Origin: Oceanispirochaeta sp.
GTDB lineage: Bacteria > Spirochaetota > Spirochaetia > DSM-2461
Assembly: GCA_963666275.2 (NCBI GenBank)
Contig: CAXXOA010000003.1
Span: 224,001 to 288,000 of the forward strand
Length of the DNA: 64,000 nucleotides
Reading direction: 5' to 3'
Each line of letters starts with the position of its first letter. The first letter of the stretch is position 1. Shown here piece by piece: positions 39,137 through 57,451 of the stretch. A program made the position numbers and the translations under genes. Below the pieces are notes generated by a model, which did not search any database, was not told the DNA's origin, and was given only the letters and a program-made list of their open reading frames with translations.

Positions 39137-39435
39137 TCACAGTTGGTACCTGAGGACGACTATTCCGCAATCAAAAGATCTGGATTCCACCAGTGTCAGG
39201 TCGAGCCTGGCGTTCAGGTCTCCGAATATGGGCAGTCCCTTTCCGATGGCACTGGGGTTAATGAAAAGAAAGAACTCATCTATCAGGCCGTTTTTGATTA
39301 ATCCGGAGACAAAAGCGGCTCCGCCGTAGGCAATCATGTCTTTTCCGGATTGGGATTTGAGTCTCTGTATTTCTTCCACCAGATCCCCTTTTGCCAGGAT
39401 TGTATTTTCCCACTGCGATGTTTCAAGGGTTTTTG
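39137..39435 (-). repeat. Displaced duplicate of the 3' half of the DHFR-family gene (copy of 44889-45182)
   Basis: 294 bp repeat 39142-39435, about 10 mismatches by eye, offset 5747; no start codon region. Confidence 0.95.
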
Positions 39436-44877: not shown

Positions 44878-45429
44878 TTATCCCGCCGGTTGGTACCTGA
44901 GGACGGCTATTCCGCAATCAAAAGACCTGGATTCCACCAGTGTCAGGTCAAGCCTGGCGTTCAGGTCTCCGAATATGGGCAGTCCCTTTCCGATGGCACT
45001 GGGGTTAATGAAAAGAAAGAACTCATCTATCAGGCCGTTCCTGATTAATCCGGAGACAAACGCGGCTCCGCCGTAGGCAATCATGTCTTTTCCGGATTGG
45101 GATTTGAGTCCCTGTATTTCTTCCACCAGATCCCCTTTCGCCAGGGTGGTATTTTCCCACTGCGATGTTTCAAGGGTTTTTGTGAATACAACTTTCTTTG
45201 TGTTTATGAAGGTCTCAGCGCCTTCTTCTTCGGGGTGGGAGGTCCAATAGGGTATGAATCCTTCTGCTAGTTTTCTTCCAAGGACTATACAATCAACATT
45301 TTCAGTGATCTGCTCCACGTATTTTTTGAGTTCCTTGTCCCAGTCAAAGTTAACCCAATCCATTTCGCCTTCAGGTCCGGCAATATACCCGTTTACTGTC
45401 ATTTGAACCTGGAGTTTCAGTTTTCTCAT
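44878..45429 (-). CDS. Dihydrofolate reductase-family (RibD C-terminal) protein
   Basis: TVNGYIAGP, LGRK, YGGA, LIDEFFL.INP..IGKG. Confidence 0.9.
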   Translation of the reverse strand: MRKLKLQVQMTVNGYIAGPEGEMDWVNFDWDKELKKYVEQITENVDCIVLGRKLAEGFIPYWTSHPEEEGAETFINTKKVVFTKTLETSQWENTTLAKGDLVEEIQGLKSQSGKDMIAYGGAAFVSGLIRNGLIDEFFLFINPSAIGKGLPIFGDLNARLDLTLVESRSFDCGIAVLRYQPAG

Positions 45430-45703
45430 GGTTTCTCCTTTTTTATCTGGTTTGAAAGATGAAGAGGGGATTTTGTGATGCTGCTTTTATTTTAGTATAG
45501 TGGGAGCTTTGGTGCTTGTAGGAAGTTGTTTTTGTCTACAAGTGGCCGAAATGTGGGGTGAGGTCAGTCTTCAGGAATAGAATGGTAATTTCTGCCCGTA
45601 CCTTTTGTTCTTTTAACACCGATTTCTGCTGTTTGCCGAAAGCTGGCGTGGTCGTTGCAAATGCAAGGACCATGACAGTAGGCAAATCAGTAGCAAATTT
45701 TTG

Positions 45704-47901
45704 GTACGCCTGACATGGCAATAAACTTATGAGGTGAAAGTCCTCTACAGCTACCCACGTATAGTAAACATGCTATACCAACTGTTAGCCGACGGCAAGG
45801 GCAATTCCGTGAGGAATTGTCTGGAGGAAGCCTGAGTGCAAAACCGGGAGCCCATGTACAAGAATGTGATATGGAATGCGAGTCACGCAGCATTCCACCC
45901 CCCAGTTCTGGAGGCTGGTCGCAAACAAGTTTGCTGCTCGCCCATGCAGCCTAGGGTGAGTCAGCCAATGATGACGATGCCCCGTGGGTGAGGGATAGGG
46001 TAAATCACAGGGTTGTCCGGCCCTGGTCGTAAACTTCGTTTACTGCTCGGGTATGCATCCGAGGAAAGTTTATTGTCTTATTCGGGAACCGAAAGCCGTT
46101 TCGGCTGGAGGTTGTTATTCAAGCGGCATGGCCGCAACCTTAACGAACACAGATCGAAGCAGCTTGCTGCGTAGAACTTTATTCGGGGAGATCTGTCTGC
46201 AAGGCGGTAACGGCGGTTTGACCGTGAGAATCCGGAGGATACCGGGGTAACAAATCCAGGCCTATCAGGGGATGACACTCTGATAAGGAGCCGTTTATAC
46301 GGAACACAAAGAAGTCGTCACAGCGATTCAAACCGGATGATACAGCGTCAGCAGGAGTAATTCTACTGATAAGCAGACAGAAGTCAGCAGAAGGCATAGT
46401 AGCCAACGCCCGGAGTAATGTCCGGTTCATGGTGAAGGTCTGAACATTTCACAAGGAGGAGCCTTATGGTTCTCAAAGGAACAATTTCAGTTTATGCCGG
46501 AATCACTTTTGGCGGACCATGGAGAAACCAGCCTTGAACGAATCTATGATGGATTTGATTTTATCCTCTGAAAATATGCACAAAGCCTGGAAACAGGTCA
46601 AACGCAATGGAGGTAGCCCTGGAATCGACGGTATCACTGTCGAGAAGTTTCCAGGATATCTGAAAACCAGATGGCCTAGAATCAAACGAGCTTTGCTCAA
46701 CGGGTACTATGTACCTTCTCCGGTGCTGAGGGTAGAAATCCCGAAGAAATCCGGAGGAAAACGGATGCTGGGAATCCCGACAGTTCTAGACAGGGTTATC
46801 CAGCAGGCTATTTCACAGGTTCTGAATCCCATATTTGATCCGGATTTCTCGGAGCATAGCTATGGATTCAGACCGGGAAGATCGGCTCACGGAGCAGTGA
46901 AACAGGTAAATCAACATGTCAAATCCGGGTATAGATACGCCGTGGATCTGGACTTGGAAAAGTTCTTTGATACAGTTAATCATGATATCCTGATGCATTT
47001 TGTGGCTGTAAAAGTCTGGGACAAATCTGTCCTCAGACTCATCGGCCGTTACCTGAGAGCCGGTATTCAGTTGGACAATGGAAAAGTGATTCCTACAGAC
47101 ATCGGCACACCCCAAGGCGGGCCCTTATCACCTCTGCTTTCCAATATCCTCCTTGATCGGTTGGATATGGAACTGGAGAGAAGAAATGTGAGGTTCGCAC
47201 GGTATGCAGATGACACTATCCTTTTAACGAAGAGATTGTGTGATGCTAGGAAGATCCTACAGGAAGTTTCAATATTTCTGGTAAGGAAATTGAAATTGGT
47301 AGTGAATCAGGAGAAAACGAAAGTTGCAAAGATAAGGGAGTGCAGTTTCCTGGGATTCACATTCAAGGGTAAGAAGATTCGCTGGACAGAGTCGTCCTTT
47401 GAGGATTTTCGGTATCATCTGAAATATCTGACAAGGCGTTCCTGGGGTGTTTCCATGGAATACAGAATCGGGAAACTCAATGAGTATATCCGGGGCTGGA
47501 TGAACTACTATGGGATCTCCCAATATTACAGCCCTTTACAGAACCTTGATGACTGGCTCCGTAGGAGGATTCGCATGTGTTACTGGAAACAGTGGCGATA
47601 TCCCAGAACGAAAGTCAGGAAACTGATGGAACTGGGGATTCCGAAAGATTTTGCCATTATCACCGGTGCCAGTAGTAAATCCTATTGGCATCTCTCCAAG
47701 TCTTACGCTACCAATGCAGCTATGTCCAATAAATGGCTGGAAGAGCAGGGATTGGTCAATATCAAATATCTGTGGTGTAAAGCCCAGGGATATATCTGAT
47801 CAAATCAGGATTTCGTTTGCTCCATGGAGTGAACCGCCCCGTGCGGACCCGCATGCGGGGTGGTGTGGGGGCTGGAGGTTAAAAGCCTCCGGCTACCCGA
47901 T
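45704..47901 (+). mobile_element. Group II intron copy 1 (attC-targeting, IIC-attC-like), 2198 bp
   Basis: 5' GTACG; domain V GAACCGCCCCGTGCGGACCCGCATGCGGGGTGGTGT; domain VI ending CCCGAT; ends defined by comparison with copy 2. Confidence 0.93.
46519..47799 (+). CDS. ltrA: Group II intron reverse transcriptase/maturase, no endonuclease domain
   Basis: PGIDG, RMLGIPTVLDR, SYGFRPGRS, GTPQGGPLSP, RYADD, maturase GWMNYY. Confidence 0.96.
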   Translation: MEKPALNESMMDLILSSENMHKAWKQVKRNGGSPGIDGITVEKFPGYLKTRWPRIKRALLNGYYVPSPVLRVEIPKKSGGKRMLGIPTVLDRVIQQAISQVLNPIFDPDFSEHSYGFRPGRSAHGAVKQVNQHVKSGYRYAVDLDLEKFFDTVNHDILMHFVAVKVWDKSVLRLIGRYLRAGIQLDNGKVIPTDIGTPQGGPLSPLLSNILLDRLDMELERRNVRFARYADDTILLTKRLCDARKILQEVSIFLVRKLKLVVNQEKTKVAKIRECSFLGFTFKGKKIRWTESSFEDFRYHLKYLTRRSWGVSMEYRIGKLNEYIRGWMNYYGISQYYSPLQNLDDWLRRRIRMCYWKQWRYPRTKVRKLMELGIPKDFAIITGASSKSYWHLSKSYATNAAMSNKWLEEQGLVNIKYLWCKAQGYI

Positions 47902-47915
47902 TTATATAGCAATTA

Positions 47916-48725
47916 TTAGCTCATACCTTTAATATTTACAGAACATTCATCTACTGTTTTTATTTCTTCAAACAAATCAATGTTTGTAAATTTTAACGAA
48001 GCCTTTGATTCGCCCAATACAATTGGTTCACAAATTGAATATAATTCAAAATCTTTACCAATTGTTATACCAAGCTGCAAACCTCCACCTATACTTGAAT
48101 ATGTACCTTCTTCAACAATTTTTGAAATTACATGATAGGGAGCTCTACTTGATAAAATTGGATGGCTAGATTCCTTTTTAAATTTCTGAATTCTTTGTTT
48201 TATATCATCTTTATGAGCACCAAGGAGAATAAAATCATTTTCACATTTCTTAGTCACATCTTCAGATAATTCTCTATTGTCTTTTCCTATTTGTGTTCTA
48301 TAGATTTTATAATCATTGTTCTTTTTGCAGTAACCAAATGAAGAGAACTCAACAGGATAGTTATTAACTATTGGTGTCGTATATTGCTTAACAATTCTAG
48401 TAACAAGATTGTGGATTTCTTCAATGCATGGTACCTTTTTATTTACTGAAATTAAACTTGTAAGGATTTTGTTTAAATTTGTTGTAACAATGAGAGCAAC
48501 TAAAGCTGATCCAGCAAATGCTATTCCAATTTTTTGGTCCCAGTATATCCGATTAAATAATCCGGAATTATCTGATTCCTTACAAATGACCTGTAATTCA
48601 TAAATTTTTGGCCCAAAATCTGTTAGAATCCTATTTGATTCTTGGCCTGATGAATATCTGGTATCAGAAACAGCCCAAAGTGATCTAGATTCATAATTAT
48701 TTATCCATAGTGCAATAGTCGACAT
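47916..48725 (-). CDS. Cassette protein with proteasome-beta/Ntn-hydrolase-like features
   Basis: N-terminal M-S-T-I, AVSDTRYS, KI, IGIAFAG, SIGG spaced as in proteasome beta/HslV subunits (fold inferred). Confidence 0.6.
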   Translation of the reverse strand: MSTIALWINNYESRSLWAVSDTRYSSGQESNRILTDFGPKIYELQVICKESDNSGLFNRIYWDQKIGIAFAGSALVALIVTTNLNKILTSLISVNKKVPCIEEIHNLVTRIVKQYTTPIVNNYPVEFSSFGYCKKNNDYKIYRTQIGKDNRELSEDVTKKCENDFILLGAHKDDIKQRIQKFKKESSHPILSSRAPYHVISKIVEEGTYSSIGGGLQLGITIGKDFELYSICEPIVLGESKASLKFTNIDLFEEIKTVDECSVNIKGMS

Positions 48726-48796
48726 ATTTTAAACCTCAAAAAAAATTATTCATGCCTAAGTTTGTATCTTTCAAGATTGATGATTTTTAAAAGAAT

Positions 48797-49516
48797 CTAT
48801 ATTTCAGAATATTTTCTTCTAATGCTATGTAAGACTTCAAATCCAATTTGCCTCATAGCTGGAAGATGAGGTTTTGAGTCTATATCTGAGAATACAAGTG
48901 TTTCTGGTTTTGTAATATCTCCTTTGTATGTTCGGATTCCAGTTTTATTTGTCTTTGATAACTCATAGTATTTTTCATCTTGTTTAGGATCGACATGAGC
49001 ACCACCATCAGTATCAGCCATATGAAGAACTAGTTCTTCTCTTGTGTATGTTATTGTATCAGAATCTACTAAAATTACTTGATTCCACCAATTTTTAAAT
49101 TCGATAAAATTCCAAGGCCTACTTTCTTTAAAATTTTCTAATGCTGGTTCAAATTTAAAGGTCAATGATTCAGGATTTTTGCTAATTTTTTGCATTGTTA
49201 GTGGAGATGAAAACATTTTTACTCCTGTCTCAACAATAGGTATAGCAGTATTAAGCATCATTAGATTGGAGTCAATTATTGATAATAAAGACTTACTATT
49301 TTTTGTATCATGAAATAAGATTCTAAGTGTTAGAGCTATTCTTTTTGATTCTATAAGATTCCCCTGATCAAATGAATTGCATGATGTATCTAAAAATGTA
49401 ATTTGCTCTTTTAAGGAATCTAGCAGATCTTTTGAGGTTAAGGGTCTTTTTCCCAAGCAACATCTTTTATATTTAATTCCGCTACCACATGAACATGAAT
49501 CATTTCTACTAGTCAT
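48797..49516 (-). CDS. Cassette protein with N-terminal SEC-C zinc motif
   Basis: SRNDSCSCGSGIKYKRCC; C-terminal MADTDGGAHVD. Confidence 0.8.
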   Translation of the reverse strand: MTSRNDSCSCGSGIKYKRCCLGKRPLTSKDLLDSLKEQITFLDTSCNSFDQGNLIESKRIALTLRILFHDTKNSKSLLSIIDSNLMMLNTAIPIVETGVKMFSSPLTMQKISKNPESLTFKFEPALENFKESRPWNFIEFKNWWNQVILVDSDTITYTREELVLHMADTDGGAHVDPKQDEKYYELSKTNKTGIRTYKGDITKPETLVFSDIDSKPHLPAMRQIGFEVLHSIRRKYSEI

Positions 49517-49679
49517 AATAAAACACCTTTATTATTAATAATTTAAAATAAGCTTGCAATGTAGTCGGACCCTACCCTTTTGCTATATAACATTCTTTTA
49601 TGCTGCTGCTCGTTAAGTTGGCGTGGTCATTGCGCATTGCAATGAGCATGACAATAGAGCAGACAGTATCAAAAGCTTG

Positions 49680-51811
49680 GTACGCCTGACATGGCAATAA
49701 ACTTATGAGGTGAAAGTCCTCTACAGCTACCCACGTATAGTAAACATGCTATACCAACTGTTAGCCGACGGCAAGGGCAATTCCGTGAGGAATTGTCTGG
49801 AGGAAGCCTGAGTGCAAAACCGGGAGCCCATGCACAAGAATGTGATAGAAGGCCCAGTTCCGGAGGCGAGTCAGCCAATGATGACGATGCCCCGTGGGTG
49901 AGGGATAGGGTAAATCACAGGGTTGTCCGACCCTGGTCGTAAACTTCGTTTACTGCTCGGGTATGCATCCGAGGAAAGTTTATTGTCTTATTCGGGAACC
50001 GAAAGCCGTTTCGGCTGGAGGTTTTTATTCAAGCGGCATGGCCGTAACCTTAACGAACACAGATCGAAGCAGCTTGCTGCGTAGATCTTTATTCGGGGAG
50101 ATCTGTCTGCAAGGCGGTAACGGCGGTTTGACCGTGAGAATCCGGAGGATACCGGGGTAACAAATCCAGGCCTATCAGGGGATGACACTCTGATAAGGAG
50201 CCGTTTATACGGAACACAAAGAAGTCGTCACAGCGATTCAAACCGGATGATACAGCGTCAGCAGGAGTAATTCTACTGATAAGCAGACAGAAGTCAGCAG
50301 AAGGCATAGTAGCCAACGCCCGGAGTAATGTCCGGTTCATGGTGAAGGTCTGAACATTTCACAAGGAGGAGCCTTATGGTTCTCAAAGGAACAATTTCAG
50401 TTTATGCCGGAATCACTTTTGGCGGACCATGGAGAAACCAGCCTTGAACGAATCTATGATGGATTTGATTTTATCCTCTGAAAATATGCACAAAGCCTGG
50501 AAACAGGTCAAACGCAATGGAGGTAGCCCTGGAATCGACGGTATCACTGTCGAGAAGTTTCCAGGATATCTGAAAACCAGATGGCCTAGAATCAAACGAG
50601 CTTTGCTCAACGGGTACTATGTACCTTCTCCGGTGCTGAGGGTAGAAATCCCGAAGAAATCCGGAGGAAAACGGATGCTGGGAATCCCGACAGTTCTAGA
50701 CAGGGTTATCCAGCAGGCTATTTCACAGGTTCTGAATCCCATATTTGATCCGGATTTCTCGGAGCATAGCTATGGATTCAGACCGGGAAGATCGGCTCAC
50801 GGAGCAGTGAAACAGGTAAATCAACATGTCAAATCCGGGTATAGATACGCCGTGGATCTGGACTTGGAAAAGTTCTTTGATACAGTTAATCATGATATCC
50901 TGATGCATTTTGTGGCTGTAAAAGTCTGGGACAAATCTGTCCTCAGACTCATCGGCCGTTACCTGAGAGCCGGTATTCAGTTGGACAATGGAAAAGTGAT
51001 TCCTACAGACATCGGCACACCCCAAGGCGGGCCCTTATCACCTCTGCTTTCCAATATCCTCCTTGATCGGTTGGATATGGAACTGGAGAGAAGAAATGTG
51101 AGGTTCGCACGGTATGCAGATGACACTATCCTTTTAACGAAGAGATTGTGTGATGCTAGGAAGATCCTACAGGAAGTTTCAATATTTCTGGTAAGGAAAT
51201 TGAAATTGGTAGTGAATCAGGAGAAAACGAAAGTTGCAAAGATAAGGGAGTGCAGTTTCCTGGGATTCACATTCAAGGGTAAGAAGATTCGCTGGACAGA
51301 GTCGTCCTTTGAGGATTTTCGGTATCATCTGAAATATCTGACAAGGCGTTCCTGGGGTGTTTCCATGGAATACAGAATCGGGAAACTCAATGAGTATATC
51401 CGGGGCTGGATGAACTACTATGGGATCTCCCAATATTACAGCCCTTTACAGAACCTTGATGACTGGCTCCGTAGGAGGATTCGCATGTGTTACTGGAAAC
51501 AGTGGCGATATCCCAGAACGAAAGTCAGGAAACTGATGGAACTGGGGATTCCGAAAGATTTTGCCATTATCACCGGTGCCAGTAGTAAATCCTATTGGCA
51601 TCTCTCCAAGTCTTACGCTACCAATGCAGCTATGTCCAATAAATGGCTGGAAGAGCAGGGATTGGTCAATATCAAATATCTGTGGTGTAAAGCCCAGGGA
51701 TATATCTGATCAAATCAGGATTTCGTTTGCTCCATGGAGTGAACCGCCCCGTGCGGACCCGCATGCGGGGTGGTGTGGGGGCTGGAGGTTAAAAGCCTCC
51801 GGCTACCCGAT
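49680..51811 (+). mobile_element. Group II intron copy 2, 2132 bp
   Basis: Same ends (GTACG...CCCGAT) and same RT as copy 1; 66 nt shorter in the 5' ribozyme region. Confidence 0.93.
50429..51709 (+). CDS. ltrA: Group II intron reverse transcriptase/maturase
   Basis: Protein identical to 46519-47799. Confidence 0.96.
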   Translation: MEKPALNESMMDLILSSENMHKAWKQVKRNGGSPGIDGITVEKFPGYLKTRWPRIKRALLNGYYVPSPVLRVEIPKKSGGKRMLGIPTVLDRVIQQAISQVLNPIFDPDFSEHSYGFRPGRSAHGAVKQVNQHVKSGYRYAVDLDLEKFFDTVNHDILMHFVAVKVWDKSVLRLIGRYLRAGIQLDNGKVIPTDIGTPQGGPLSPLLSNILLDRLDMELERRNVRFARYADDTILLTKRLCDARKILQEVSIFLVRKLKLVVNQEKTKVAKIRECSFLGFTFKGKKIRWTESSFEDFRYHLKYLTRRSWGVSMEYRIGKLNEYIRGWMNYYGISQYYSPLQNLDDWLRRRIRMCYWKQWRYPRTKVRKLMELGIPKDFAIITGASSKSYWHLSKSYATNAAMSNKWLEEQGLVNIKYLWCKAQGYI

Positions 51812-53839
51812 TTATATCTCACTTTCCAATGTCCTTATTTCATCCTCTAAAAAAAGAATTTCCTTTTCTTGTTTGAGTTTTGTCTCATTACTAAAGTTAT
51901 TTCTTTTAAATATTTTCCTTAATATATTCTCATTTTTACGTGATAATATTTTTTTAATATTTGGAGTTCGTTCTTTTATTATGATAAAAATTAGAGAAAG
52001 AATATGAGGAGAAAAGGATAATAGAGTTGCATACTTCTCGACACTATTCCAGTTTATTCTTTTAATTGCTAAAAATGAAATTAAGTAAATCATAACTATT
52101 GTAAAAACTAAAATATGTTTTCTTCTATTAATTCTTTTATTAGCTAAGGCTCGAAGTTCTTTTTCATCATTGAGGGTTTTACTGAAATCAACTTTTAGTT
52201 TTTCTAGTAATATTTTTTTAGAACTGATTGAGCTTTTCGTTGCTTCGATGTATTTCAATTCTAAGTCACTCATTGATTGTTGAAGTTTACTATTCTTATC
52301 TTTATTGAGCTCTGCTTCCTGTTTAAAATGCTCTTCTTGAATAAGATATTTTTCTAAAGAATCTTCTGTAATATTAACCAATACTTCTTCAGCATTATCT
52401 TCATTAAGTATTTCTGGTTCTTTTCTTTTTTGTCTTAGATCATTAATACGATTATGCAATGTTTCTTTTGAAACTTTTTTTTGGTTAAACAGATTTTTTA
52501 CTTCTTCATACTCTTCATTAATAGAATCCCCTAAGTGTGCTGAGAGTGTTATTTTAGCTTTATTGACTACATCTACAGTATAAGGAGAATCCTGTTTACC
52601 AAAACCTTTATTCATTTTGAACCAGAATTTATTTACAAGAAAATCAAGATCTGTTGCTAAAGGGATTCCATTTTCTTCCCTAAATGATTTTGCTTCGTAG
52701 GAAATTTTAAGAGTAGTTGAAGTTCCCGTTAAAAGTATGAAGCGGGCATCCTCAAATCTATAAACAGTGGAGTTTTTCCTCAGAATATTTATATAATTTA
52801 AAAATCTAACATTATCCCTTATATCATCAAAGTCTTTTTCTTTCTCAATTTCTTCTATCTTATCCGAATCAATTAGATTATATTTATGATTTTTTTCTGA
52901 AAAATAATCTGACTCATCATCTTGAAAAATCCTATTTGTTTTGAGTAATAAATATAAATCAGATTTTTTTGTAAGTATATCTGATTTATCCTTAGCCCCA
53001 TTAAGAATTGAAGCCATAGCTGTATGTCCAGGTTTTAAGCTTTTTGTTCCCTGTTTTATTTTTTCAGCAATATAAAAGTAGCCTTCAACCTCATCTTTAA
53101 CTTCTTGGAAGTATTTTAAATGGATTTTTTCAGTTCTTTTATTAATTTCCTTAATATATGATAGTAAAGTATTAACTTGTCTTTTAAATATTGGTCCATT
53201 ATAACCAGCTAAATGAAAAAGTATTTCAGTATCCAAATATATGGTGAGTTCAGTATCCCAGGAGCCCATAAGTGAAGGATCTGTATATTTTATACCAGAG
53301 TATAGAACTACTCCTTCTTTTATACTTTGAAGATTATTATTAAACGCTTTATTCTTTTCATTCAAGATAATAAAAGTACTTATATAGTCTGAGTACTTAA
53401 ATCCATTTGTATTAAATAAAAGAAAATTACAAAATGAATTTGAAACATCCAATTTTTGGACATCAGAAAGTTTTGATTGTTGTTTTTCTTCGATAAAACA
53501 TATCAGTTGATCAATAATTGAATCAGTTTCATCAGTAACTGTTTTTTTCAGTTTTAAGATTTTAGAATTGGATTCAGCCTTTGAAATCACATTATACATA
53601 CCATATGATTTTTCTAAAAAATCAATTTTTTTAAGAGATGTTTTCACAACTGATAAAGGTAAATCGAAACTAAATTCTTCATTTATTTTTGTAGTAATCT
53701 CTTCAATGTTAAATCTATGGAGATTATTTATTATGATAGATTCTTTAGCGAACTGACGAACTACATCATAAATATCATGATCCTTTGCATACAATTCTTT
53801 AAAAATTACATATGAAGCTAAACACTTGTGATCTTTCAT
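51812..53839 (-). CDS. Cassette protein: PIN-like domain, coiled coil, two C-terminal TM helices
   Basis: 675 aa; IYLDTEILF resembles PIN strand 1; charged helical region; hydrophobic ILVFTIVMIYLISFLAI and LLSFSPHILSLIFIII. Confidence 0.65.
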   Translation of the reverse strand: MKDHKCLASYVIFKELYAKDHDIYDVVRQFAKESIIINNLHRFNIEEITTKINEEFSFDLPLSVVKTSLKKIDFLEKSYGMYNVISKAESNSKILKLKKTVTDETDSIIDQLICFIEEKQQSKLSDVQKLDVSNSFCNFLLFNTNGFKYSDYISTFIILNEKNKAFNNNLQSIKEGVVLYSGIKYTDPSLMGSWDTELTIYLDTEILFHLAGYNGPIFKRQVNTLLSYIKEINKRTEKIHLKYFQEVKDEVEGYFYIAEKIKQGTKSLKPGHTAMASILNGAKDKSDILTKKSDLYLLLKTNRIFQDDESDYFSEKNHKYNLIDSDKIEEIEKEKDFDDIRDNVRFLNYINILRKNSTVYRFEDARFILLTGTSTTLKISYEAKSFREENGIPLATDLDFLVNKFWFKMNKGFGKQDSPYTVDVVNKAKITLSAHLGDSINEEYEEVKNLFNQKKVSKETLHNRINDLRQKRKEPEILNEDNAEEVLVNITEDSLEKYLIQEEHFKQEAELNKDKNSKLQQSMSDLELKYIEATKSSISSKKILLEKLKVDFSKTLNDEKELRALANKRINRRKHILVFTIVMIYLISFLAIKRINWNSVEKYATLLSFSPHILSLIFIIIKERTPNIKKILSRKNENILRKIFKRNNFSNETKLKQEKEILFLEDEIRTLESEI

Positions 53840-53861
53840 TTCTTCCCCATTTTTTATGTAG

Positions 53862-54035
53862 ATATAACACTCTGATCACCTGCGCCCCGGCCTGGCCGCA
53901 GGACAGGTATTGGCGTTCTTCTTGCCATCATGGTAAAACATCTTTACTATATTGAGAAGCGATTATTTACTATTGAGTTGAAATATCAGCAAGAAGTATG
54001 ACAATAGGGGTGTCAGGTGCATCAGCATGTTATGT
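53862..54035 (-). other. attC site 3 (174 bp, intact)
   Basis: Minus strand ACATAAC ATGCTGAT g CACCTG a CACCCC ... GGGGCG CAGGTG ATCAGAGT GTTATAT. Confidence 0.9.
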
Positions 54036-54167
54036 GAGCGTCCTTGCAGTAGTTTTGCCCCGAGCGAATATTACACTTAACAGATTATAATCTGAATTCT
54101 GTCTTCATTTGTATTTTAATGGTAATTTTAAGATATGCTTTATGATTATTGAGAAATAGGAAGTCTG

Positions 54168-54746
54168 ATGCAAAAAATAAATATTTCATTGATATTTTTC
54201 TTTCTCTTCTGTTTTTATTCTTGGGGTGAAAGCAGAATTGATGAATATCGTAGGAATTATAGTACAGCTATTATTAGCAATGATACGGAAATTATAGAAA
54301 ATACACTTTCTTTTATAGATAAATTAATCGATCAAAATGAATTTAAGGATATCTCTAGTATTTATTACAACAAAGCTCAATTGCTTAATAAGCTTAAAAG
54401 AACTGATGAAGCTATAGAGGCATTGGAGCATCTGGAATTCCCATTAAATAAATTTTATCAAGCTTCACTATTCGTCAGGATTGGACAAGAAGAAGATGCA
54501 ACAAGCTTATTTGATTCTGTTATTAATTTGTACTTAACTACTTTGAAAGAAGACGAAAGAACTAGAGACAATATACGTTCTTTATATGAAAGTATCATTT
54601 TAGCTAATATCTTAGCTGATAGAGATCAAAGACAAGTTGAAAAGATGATAAGAGATGACATAAGGCTTAGCGATTCAGATATCACTAGATTAAATAAAGC
54701 AAAAGAAGCTCAAAAGGATGCTTTATTGCAAGGGTTATGGCCATGA
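54168..54746 (+). CDS. Exported TPR-like hypothetical protein (antisense to array)
   Basis: Signal peptide; YYNKAQLLNKLKRTDEAIEAL TPR-like helix pair. Confidence 0.7.
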   Translation: MQKINISLIFFFLFCFYSWGESRIDEYRRNYSTAIISNDTEIIENTLSFIDKLIDQNEFKDISSIYYNKAQLLNKLKRTDEAIEALEHLEFPLNKFYQASLFVRIGQEEDATSLFDSVINLYLTTLKEDERTRDNIRSLYESIILANILADRDQRQVEKMIRDDIRLSDSDITRLNKAKEAQKDALLQGLWP

Positions 54747-54871
54747 ATAAACGGGTAGCATTGCTACTGATAACCGGATATCTGTCTACTGCTGTTAATA
54801 TATGATATATTCAAATTAGGATTCTATTACAATGTGTATTTTTAGAGTTAAACGTCATTGAAGAGAGCTTT

Positions 54872-55195
54872 ATGGATCAGAAATTATTTTACAAAAAAAA
54901 ATATCTTTACAAGATATATATGATATTACTATTCTTGAGAATTTCTTCATTTTCAATCTCTGTTTTATGGGTCCTTAGTTCTATAATAATTTTGTTTGAA
55001 CCATTTCTGTCATCGTTCCAAGTTGGTCGTGATGGTTCTATCGCGTTATTTAGTTTTGCGATTGATAATATTGGAAGAAATATCAGTATTTTAGCAATAT
55101 TAGTTACTATAACAATATTTTTTGTCTTCTTATCAAAAGCTTTCAAGAAACGGAACCATGAAATAATTGATTATTGGAGTTTGGGAAGGTATTAA
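54872..55195 (+). CDS. Small two-TM hypothetical protein (antisense to array)
   Basis: 107 aa; two hydrophobic stretches. Confidence 0.5.
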   Translation: MDQKLFYKKKYLYKIYMILLFLRISSFSISVLWVLSSIIILFEPFLSSFQVGRDGSIALFSFAIDNIGRNISILAILVTITIFFVFLSKAFKKRNHEIIDYWSLGRY

Positions 55196-55379
55196 ATGAT
55201 AATTACCGAGATTTATGGTAAATCGGTGCAACGACTTGGGCTTGGATTAAGCAAAATTTTCTTGTTATCAAAATACTTAATACTTCAGCAGAAAATAACT
55301 ACTGCTAAGGTTCAATTTTGTCTAATTTGAAATTTATGCTAACAAATTCCTTCTGAAGATTAACGAAATTTTCGAGTCC

Positions 55380-55551
55380 ACATAACACCAAAATATGCTG
55401 CGCAGCGGCCTGGCTTGCCAGGTATAGGCGCTTTTCTTGCCCCTTTATTCTAAACAGCTATTCCTTATTTGAGAAGAACAATTCCTTTGTCGAAGCAATT
55501 TCTGCAAGAAATGTGATCTATAGCTTCGACTGCATCATTTTTTTGTTATGC
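55380..55551 (-). other. attC site 4 (172 bp, intact)
   Basis: Minus strand GCATAAC AAAAAAAT g ATGCAG t CGAAGC ... GCTGCG CAGCAT ATTTTGGT GTTATGT; central part homologous to attC3. Confidence 0.88.
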
Positions 55552-56047
55552 CGCAGCATTTTGTATGCCCGGAGGCCATGAAAAGGTTGAAGATTTCCAC
55601 AATCGTAGGTGAAGGCGAATTCCCTATATTCTCTACCCATTGCCAGCCGCAACCGGCGTCGATAAGTTAGTAATCAGTGTAGGTAACGAGCCATGAAACC
55701 AGGATCAAAACCCTCATAATCTGAAAAGTTACGATCAAAAAGTCAGGAAATCTACCCGTACAAAATGTGTCGATATAACATAACTTATTATGCTGTTCAG
55801 TATAATAATACTGAACTCCCTTTCACCCCCTGTCAATAACAGAAAAAAAAGAATTATCTAGACATTTACGCAGTGATAACATCCATATCCAACAGTTATC
55901 TAGACGTCTATATAATTCCGGGAATTGTTGCCAGATGGGGGAGCGGAGGGAATATACGTCTGTAAGAAAGGATATTCCGTGAAACCGGAAGAGGGATTTT
56001 TTTTTCCCGGCCGGGAATGTCCCCCGGCCGGGATGGAGTAGACGGGA

Positions 56048-57451
56048 TTAGCCGATAGACTTCCAGGCATGCCCTTCCATCCGGTTGGTCATGCCTCCGA
56101 TTTTTGCAAGATCTTCCGCGGCTGCCTGGGCGTCGGAGAGGATCTTCTCTTCTTTCACCGGGCCTGTGTACTTTCCGGCCTCCACAAGGATTTTGCCGTC
56201 TACAAACACAGTATCCACATTCTTCTCCGACGAGGAATAAACAATGGTGGACACAGGGTTATGAAGGGGGATCGACTTGGCCGAGCGGGCGGGGTTAAAA
56301 ATCAGGATATCCGCTTTTTTCCCCGCTTCCAGGGAGCCTATCTCCTTGTCCATACCCAGGCACCGGGCGGCGTCTATGGTGGCCATTTCCAGAACCTTTT
56401 CGGCGGTCATAATGGTGGGATCACAGCTCACGGCTTTATGGATCAGGGCGGTCATCTTCATCAGTTCGATCATGTCCTGGCAGTTGTTGCTGGCCGCACC
56501 GTCCACTCCCAGGCTCACGTCGATGCCTTTTTTGAGCATCGCCGGGACAGGGGCGGTCCCTGAGGAGAGGTACATATTGCTCACCGTATTGTGGGAAACC
56601 TTCATGCCGTATCGGGCGGCGGTTTTCTGATCCTCTTCGGTCAGGTAGACGCAGTGGACCATAAGGATATCCGGACCGGTGAGGCCCAGTTTTATCATCA
56701 CATCCATATCGGGGACGCCGTGGAGTTTTTCCGCCGCCTGCCTGTCAAAGGGGGTTTCCGAGATATGCACGGTGAAGCCGGTTTTGTAGGTATCCTTCAG
56801 CTCCTTCAGCATCCTTAGGTTCTTTTCCGAGTTGGACCAGATGGCCGCCGGAGCCAGCCACAGACCGATCCGGCCGTCGTAGCTCCCGCTGTACCGGTCC
56901 CACAGGTCGATAAAGTCCTTCTCTATGACAGAGCTCTCCTGCATGATCTGCCGGGGAACGCCGAACTCTTCGCCTGTGTCCATGCAGCCCCGGCCCAGAA
57001 TGCCCCTGATGCCGATGTCGCCCATGGCTTTGATCACCCCTTCGGACAGCCCTTCGGCGGGGTGGGGGTACATGTAGTCCAGAGTGGTGGTTACCCCCGA
57101 CTGGAGGCTCTCCAGAGAGCCTGCCATGGCCGCTTTGTAGCAGTGGTCGGGGGTCAGATTCTTCGCTGCCGGAAAGGTCATGGTGGCCAGCCATTTGTCC
57201 AGGGCCATATCGTCCCCCAGGCCTTTCAGCAGGTTTTGAAAAAGGTGAGTATGGGTGTTGATCAGACCGGGCAGAACAATTTTGTTCCGGCAGTCGATCA
57301 CCCTGTCGGCACCAGCTTCCTCCGATGGAGTCAGATCCCTGACGATCCCTTCAATCCGGTCGTCCCGGATAATAACAGACCCCCCGTAAAGGATCTCCCT
57401 GTCACTGTTCAAGGTCAGAACAATGCCGCCTTTCAGAATCGTCACACCCAT
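56048..57451 (-). CDS. Metal-dependent amidohydrolase (Atz/Trz/SsnA-like nucleobase deaminase family)
   Basis: PGLINTHTH, HISE, VHCV, LGVDG, GSLEAGKKAD. Confidence 0.9.
   Translation of the reverse strand: MGVTILKGGIVLTLNSDREILYGGSVIIRDDRIEGIVRDLTPSEEAGADRVIDCRNKIVLPGLINTHTHLFQNLLKGLGDDMALDKWLATMTFPAAKNLTPDHCYKAAMAGSLESLQSGVTTTLDYMYPHPAEGLSEGVIKAMGDIGIRGILGRGCMDTGEEFGVPRQIMQESSVIEKDFIDLWDRYSGSYDGRIGLWLAPAAIWSNSEKNLRMLKELKDTYKTGFTVHISETPFDRQAAEKLHGVPDMDVMIKLGLTGPDILMVHCVYLTEEDQKTAARYGMKVSHNTVSNMYLSSGTAPVPAMLKKGIDVSLGVDGAASNNCQDMIELMKMTALIHKAVSCDPTIMTAEKVLEMATIDAARCLGMDKEIGSLEAGKKADILIFNPARSAKSIPLHNPVSTIVYSSSEKNVDTVFVDGKILVEAGKYTGPVKEEKILSDAQAAAEDLAKIGGMTNRMEGHAWKSIG

Follow-up and report, generated by a model that had tools for sequence, protein, structure and literature searches.

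How does an array of integron cassettes come to lie in a genome without a recombinase gene beside it, and is such an array a leftover or a place where cassettes can still arrive? This question is raised by a 64,000-nt stretch of Oceanispirochaeta sp. (assembly GCA_963666275.2, contig CAXXOA010000003.1, positions 224,001 to 288,000; hereafter the window), for which an initial annotation had proposed a hidden array of four attC sites and four cassettes, i.e. a CALIN, a group of attC sites that has no integron-integrase. The integron array is real, has four cassettes and lacks a recombinase gene. Our preferred reading, to which we assign a probability of roughly 70%, is that it belongs to a set of five attI-headed arrays of this genome and is likely a satellite loaded in trans by the sole integron integrase gene (intI) detected, and that two of its attC sites hold group II introns of the IIC-attC lineage, inserted at G/TT (a slash marks the point of insertion or crossover), likely by way of an exon-binding site 1 (EBS1) that reads CAAU.

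The four imperfect palindromes of one shared geometry that had been described are present. A fixed-geometry detector, in which the bottom strand is the + strand, an extrahelical C lies 8 nt from GTT and a second extrahelical base (T/A) 6 nt further on, recovered 4/4 sites, with 19 matches across the genome (5.27 Mb), and gave no match when run on 2.56 Mb of window sequence shuffled in blocks. Since this geometry had been set from the four window sites themselves, a non-circular test was made with profiles built solely from 13 attC sites of another genome, G003 (the genome of the window is G000). These profiles matched all four sites (best E-value per site 4.8e-13, 1.3e-10, 3.6e-15 and 1.9e-40), and 20 shuffled windows yielded no match to them. 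After deletion of both introns in silico, which restores TTG/TTATAT, the + strands fold better than the - strands at each site (z-scores of -4.8, -5.7, -5.9 and -2.7 versus -2.1, -3.4, -3.4 and -2.0). The core sequences R'' (RYYYAAC) and R' (GTTRRRY) stand at both ends, R'' of sites A and B being complete once the introns are removed, and all four bottom-strand hairpins carry a pair of extrahelical bases spaced by about 6 nt, either T-N6-C or A-N6-C; both bulge types are excised by integrases (PMC3053210). Compensatory changes occur at 23 of the 31 predicted pairs in 12 short attC sites of the sister arrays, the window sites being left out.

The self-complementarity of the cassette ends extends over 12, 9, 8 and 5 nt and is found at 49591/47912, 53868/51819 and 55386/54036, and the inner arms common to short and long attC sites are visible in the sequence. 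The proposed AT-richness of the cargo applies to cassettes 1-3 (26.5-29.8% GC) but not to cassette 4 (43.6% GC); the flanks of the array have 44% and 56% GC. It could be argued that the palindromes belong to some other repeat family, REP-like or terminators, which class C introns target as hairpins, since these introns also insert behind terminators (PMC4424553) and a dispersed hairpin repeat does exist in this genome. This idea is contradicted by the R''/R' cores, the two extrahelical bases 6 nt apart, the single orientation and the complementary cassette ends, as well as by the array that adjoins intI, whose sites are of the same families, and we regard it as practically untenable. A neighbouring integrase is absent as described: on the contig of the window (C3), neither TIGR02249 nor tblastn with IntI gives a match. 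The call as a CALIN stands as well: four clustered attC sites without a nearby intI or intI pseudogene fit the IntegronFinder definition, which asks for at least two (Cury et al. 2016, PMC4889954).

The initial annotation, correct about attC sites and cassettes, overlooked the attI homologue that stands at the start of the array (Table 1). It also had neither the four sister arrays nor the targeting of attC by the introns in a shifted register, and these, together with the attI homologue, are what is most informative here. It is identical at 129 of 147 positions (88%) to C1:1063330-1063476, a segment that ends about 10 nt before the start codon of the intI found elsewhere in the genome, and this identity ends at the G/TT crossover, where the first cassette begins. 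The differences between the two copies fall outside the repeats, and no change is seen in the last 46 nt before the crossover, which would have a chance of about 0.001 if the differences were evenly spread, in a span picked post hoc. Because the next gene is not intI but an amidohydrolase gene ending at 56048, we call this region an orphan attI homologue; the homology is followed by about 130 bp that contain a terminator-like hairpin, and then by the end of the amidohydrolase gene. An ordinary CALIN, seeded without attI at a short secondary site (attG, GWT), is thereby very improbable. Although secondary-site seeding has been shown experimentally in E. coli (10.1101/2022.09.11.507474), the similarity of the 147 bp before the first cassette to the main attI region reaches far beyond a GWT site, and the other orphan arrays have attI homology too, at lower identity, which already contradicts such an origin.

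Only one IntI above the TIGR02249 cut-off was detected in the genome. It is encoded on another contig, has 407 aa and possesses the catalytic motifs. The attI core pattern has five matches, all of which head an attC array, and the 28 attC profile matches of the genome (the profile included the window sites) all fall in five regions of 8, 6, 5, 5 and 4 sites, and at the head of every region stands one attI core. Just one of the five arrays has intI beside it, and a search of the contig revealed no remnant of intI near the window array. The proposed genome search has therefore yielded one intact intI elsewhere and four sister arrays, and of the two suggestions made for the origin of the array, an IntI acting in trans or one since lost, the first is favoured by the intact gene on another contig and the missing remnant.

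Relatives add to this picture. One intI match was found in 9 of the 10 other genomes of the genus. Among seven genomes searched with their own attI, five have extra copies (four in G000, two in G002, three in G003, one in G013 and two in G017), and no IntI match lies within about 1.5 kb of any of these 12 orphan loci. For two orphans each in G000, G002 and G003, the homology to the main copy stops at one shared point, which is a palindrome in G000 and G003. Orphan L221 of G003 retains 27/30 identities in the attI core and 113/205 over the upstream alignment, i.e. background level, and its first cassette is identical at 228 of 232 positions to the first cassette at the main attI. A diverged orphan followed by a near-identical cassette suggests a recent loading by IntI in trans as the simplest reading. 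IntI from the main integron would bind the orphan attI and insert cassette circles there, and recombination between attC sites would excise cassettes. In G004, a one-mismatch copy of the attI core of G000 (L160, G004:C15:73099) lies on a contig other than that of the intI of G004 and is possibly another orphan.

The array might instead be a dead remnant, i.e. an integron that was duplicated, translocated or separately acquired and lost its intI, so that attI is an inert hitchhiker and the array decays and collects introns. Loss of intI and rearrangement are among the listed origins of CALINs (PMC4889954), and the sister arrays are rich in insertion sequence (IS) elements and in introns that are truncated. 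However, a dead remnant does not fit well with the lack of an intI remnant near any orphan, with attI cores and repeats that are conserved while the spacers diverge, with the homology of paired orphans stopping at one shared point in three genomes, or with the near-identical first cassette behind the diverged orphan of G003. We therefore consider it unlikely.

Several observations weigh against loading in trans. No whole cassette is common at high identity to the arrays of this genome, which share just attC families, cassette ends and IS copies and thus no intact cassette, as a dead remnant would have it; the argument for loading in trans therefore depends on G003, and there the shared first cassette could equally have come about by gene conversion. 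IS copies in or beside three sister arrays fit rearrangement, and a second intI is possible, given an assembly of 3 contigs with 97% completeness. G008 and G033, searched with their own attI region, have no extra attI, and the copies in G013 and G017 are cores of 25-34 bp only. An attC site was detected within 1.5 kb of 3 of the 8 orphan loci outside G000, and of none of the 4 main loci, so that this proximity check is insensitive. A convincing cassette promoter (Pc) was not found, 3 promoter-like matches comparing with 1.5 +/- 1.2 expected.

The two introns pose the second part of the question. Their ends are unambiguous (GTACG at 45704 and 49680, CCCGAT at 47901 and 51811), and they exhibit the class IIC hallmarks of a short domain V (D5), a CGC triad and an intron-encoded protein (IEP) without endonuclease, and they sit in antisense orientation within R'' of the bottom strand of attC; an identity as class E or IIB introns was rejected. 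The IEP is a 426-aa group II reverse transcriptase (RT)/maturase, and the identical protein is encoded by both window introns and by one intron of the main integron, a sign that they spread recently. All 11 intron 5' ends of the genome are within attC sites, and there are several 3' remnants besides. The named relatives of the RT are from spirochaetes (79-85% identity), and its best annotated plasmid matches (52% and 50%) come from introns of class 1 integrons, which start with GTACGCC and sit at TTGT/TA. In a quick IQ-TREE analysis (46 of 48 rows, at least 330 aa, after duplicate removal), the seven spirochaete RTs form one clade (support 100), which groups with the introns of class 1 integrons (support 96). 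In another sample, a contig (X4, record 11) matches 51812-52320 without difference, and its 47 further letters leave the reference exactly at the intron junction, as expected of an intron-free allele. The intron-free joint 49679-51812 is not among the best 15 of 20 joints of sequencing reads; joints in sample X2 were dismissed, as they reflect repeats of the same genome, and missing coverage of the flanks in X4-X6 was given no weight. None of the sequencing runs listed as containing the sequence is of RNA.

Both window introns lie at TTG/TT, one base off the published TTGT/T, and for this reason we file them as a variant of the IIC-attC lineage. The same holds for most copies in the genome, 10 of 11 following TG and the eleventh GTTA. 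The EBS1 loop reads ACAA in canonical introns and CAAU in the window introns, and loop and target covary among 75 distinct intron starts: 23/23 with CAAU follow TG (22 of them TTG), 25/27 with ACAA follow GT, and one with UAAC follows GTTA. Insertion at G/TT is thus likely a consequence of the CAAU loop. The attC register was callable, with a detector relaxed to take G-bulge besides C-bulge attC sites, for 32 of the 75 starts, giving G/TT in 18 cases, GT/T in 12 and two other offsets once each. The intron that follows GTTA is a divergent one (L030:1145-3118; G000 C1:1046145-1048118), with 73% RT identity and its insertion at GTTA/T of R''; further such introns were found neither among 80 metagenome loci (best 67% identity) nor among 30 loci retrieved in a search of 301 genomes of the class.

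In the folded site, G/TT in R'' lies opposite the bond cut by IntI. The intron ribonucleoprotein would recognise the folded attC bottom strand where it is exposed on the lagging-strand template, and the intron would reverse-splice where EBS1 pairs, EBS1 setting the exact bond. Such an insertion would break the GTT of R'', weaken that attC and fix the cassette in place. Around each of the five arrays the + strand has a positive GC skew, which makes + the predicted lagging-strand template, and the attC bottom strand is found on it in 4/5 arrays, the window array included. Folding of attC is favoured on this template (PMC5371416), and endonuclease-minus introns use replication forks (PMC4424553). 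Introns are present in 11 of the 22 attC sites with bottom strand + and in 0/6 in the single array of opposite orientation (Fisher p=0.055, from non-independent sites). This limited bias weighs against our account of the introns, as do the small number of starts with a called register, two offset-1 calls (L036, L091) without a resolved CAAU, the single case of the GTTA/T register, and the origin of the CAAU introns, which stem from a small number of related genomes, every one with many copies, and are not independent events.

Some further observations concern the introns. A hairpin repeat of about 42 nt (45913-45954, 46021-46062 and 49931-49972) has 33 matches genome-wide, often at the tips of other hairpins, and occupies three different places among the intron copies, two of them in domain I and the third within the RT gene, where the reading frame is kept (440-aa variants). 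The genome also has seven Y1_Tnp genes. An insertion of 101 nt, flanked by 9-nt direct repeats and containing a terminator-like hairpin, is found in three intron copies (46078-46178 and 49988-50088 in the window). With regard to Pout in intron domain I, the corresponding position has preserved the -35 box and not the -10 box, and promoter-like matches are not in excess. Intron 3' remnants (D5 and domain VI, D6, or D6 only) lie at cassette ends at C1:1034446, C2:1173808, C2:1165075 and C3:182640 of G000, where attC is partly or wholly lost, and two of them have one altered D5 in common. These remnants may be relevant to the part that such introns have been proposed to play in forming cassettes or in their decay.

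Table 1. Features of the array, in window coordinates (position 1 is the first letter of the window).
Feature	Position	Strand	Description	Basis
Orphan attI region	55772..55918	-	two GTCTAGATAA direct repeats; crossover G/TT at 55779/55778; no intI behind	homology to attI-to-intI intergenic segment
Cassette 4	55552..55778	-	first behind attI; no conserved open reading frame (ORF)	homologues across genus
attC D	55380..55551	-	long type, intron-free; bottom-strand bulges A-N6-C	detector, folding, G003 profiles
Cassette 3 cargo	54036..55379	-	ORFs antisense to array	
Cassette 3 ORF	54168-54746		192 aa, weak TPR matches; antisense to array	
Cassette 3 ORF	54872-55195		107 aa, doubtful; antisense to array	
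attC C	53862..54035	-	long type, intron-free; bulges T-N6-C	detector, folding, G003 profiles
Cassette 2 gene	51812..53839	-	675 aa; TAA stop within R''	
attC B, detached R'' part	51812..51817	-	ATATAA; final C at 49679	intron ends, folding
Intron 2	49680..51811	+	2132 nt, GTACG...AT, antisense to cassettes, inserted TTG/TTA; RT 50429-51709; EBS1 CAAU 49876-49879; D5 51743-51774	
attC B, main part	49585..49679	-	short type; bulges A-N6-C	detector, folding, G003 profiles
Cassette 1, first gene	48797..49516	-	239 aa, N-terminal SEC-C motif	
Cassette 1, second gene	47916..48725	-	269 aa	
attC A, detached R'' part	47902..47907	-	ATATAA; final C at 45703	intron ends, folding
Intron 1	45704..47901	+	2198 nt, antisense to cassettes, inserted TTG/TTA; RT 46519-47799; EBS1 CAAU 45966-45969; D5 47833-47864	
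attC A, main part	45611..45703	-	short type, last site of array; bulges T-N6-C	detector, folding, G003 profiles

The cargo of the array is varied. Cassette 4 has matches in 5 of the 38 genomes of the family, all in one genus, and its reading frames are not conserved. A short GC-rich core of this cassette is conserved in G001, G002, G003 and G009, and the cassette is often the first behind attI, as seen in the window, three arrays of G003, an orphan of G002 and the main array of G001. That cassette 4 is a promoter cassette is one idea. A conserved RNA structure was rejected (compensatory change at 0/14 pairs on the cassette strand and 4/15 on the other, three of these being cassette ends), as was an Rfam RNA, given chance snoRNA matches only. 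The ends and the long attC of cassette 3 are common to cassettes in two sister arrays (78-92%), where the ORFs are antisense as well and the cargo differs. The protein of cassette 2 matches no Pfam or PADLOC family, and its one Atlas neighbour with the automatic name PIN-like is a lead only; the second protein of cassette 1 matches no Pfam, PADLOC or NCBIfam family. The idea of known defence genes was dropped, as PADLOC yields just SEC-C-motif and weak TPR matches. A RibD_C gene without an attC of its own (44878-45429) follows the last attC, and 294 bp of it are repeated at 96.6% about 5.7 kb upstream (~39142-39435), flanking a tct transporter and BNR-repeat block. At the other side, the flanking amidohydrolase has no orthologue in 20 relatives (best 39% identity), and therefore the locus as it was before insertion is not visible in an empty-site comparison.

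The observations might also reflect something more unusual, a distributed integron, in which the integrase itself copies or moves a defined attI module, delimited by a palindromic IntI box at its distal side, into new positions on the chromosome, and several live capture sites thus depend on one intI, and in which attC introns retarget among at least three R'' registers by a change of EBS1 alone, several intron types sharing one hairpin target. We put this forward as a tentative and rather doubtful possibility. Whatever its fate, searching for copies of a genome's own attI reveals docking sites on some CALINs and makes their origin and activity directly testable. The natural series of EBS1 loops (ACAA, CAAU and UAAC) on one structural target offers a way to separate hairpin recognition from base pairing in the target choice of class C introns, and to see if an attC is silenced when an intron enters it.

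Published work already covers CALINs and the mobilisation of their cassettes in trans, and likewise ORF-less cassettes and IIC-attC introns. In the literature searched, mostly freely accessible papers, we found no report of arrays headed by extra attI copies, nor of the G/TT or GTTA/ register; minor registers may stand in target-site tables of IIC-attC papers beyond that scope. The window introns resemble published IIC-attC introns of the S.ma.I2 type in the clade of the IEP, the 5' end GTACGCC, the short D5 with CGC triad, the missing endonuclease domain and the antisense insertion in R'' of the attC bottom strand (PMC3001079, PMC7923331). They differ in their target, TTG/TT, as TTGT/T is given for "the majority" (PMC7923331).

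Similar to sedentary chromosomal integrons as described in PMC5371416, the genus has one intI per genome (9/10 other genomes), species-specific attI and related attC families. Here, however, the cassettes are spread over five loci, four of them with the bottom strand on the predicted lagging-strand template, whereas 25 of the 30 sedentary integrons of that study are oriented in the opposite way. Cassette 4 is reminiscent of the ORF-less promoter cassettes of Treponema (PMC8876359), which likewise have no conserved ORF, a normal attC and often the first position. Promoter activity is a feature of the Treponema cassettes, and cassette 4, as read from its sequence, has a short GC-rich core conserved across five species.

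With CALINs, the window array shares at least two attC sites, no intI nearby and an IntI elsewhere in the genome, and mobilisation of CALINs in trans has been proposed (PMC4889954, PMC9668308, 10.1101/2025.06.18.660453). The usual view of CALINs as passive leftovers arises because searches for attI go no further than classes 1-3. In the passages of PMC4889954 drawn on here, IntegronFinder searches attI for these classes only and the four listed CALIN origins predict no multiple attI per intI, and one attI per integron is assumed in PMC3607928. The window array differs from such CALINs in that it keeps an attI homologue, and it could therefore gain cassettes and not merely lose them.

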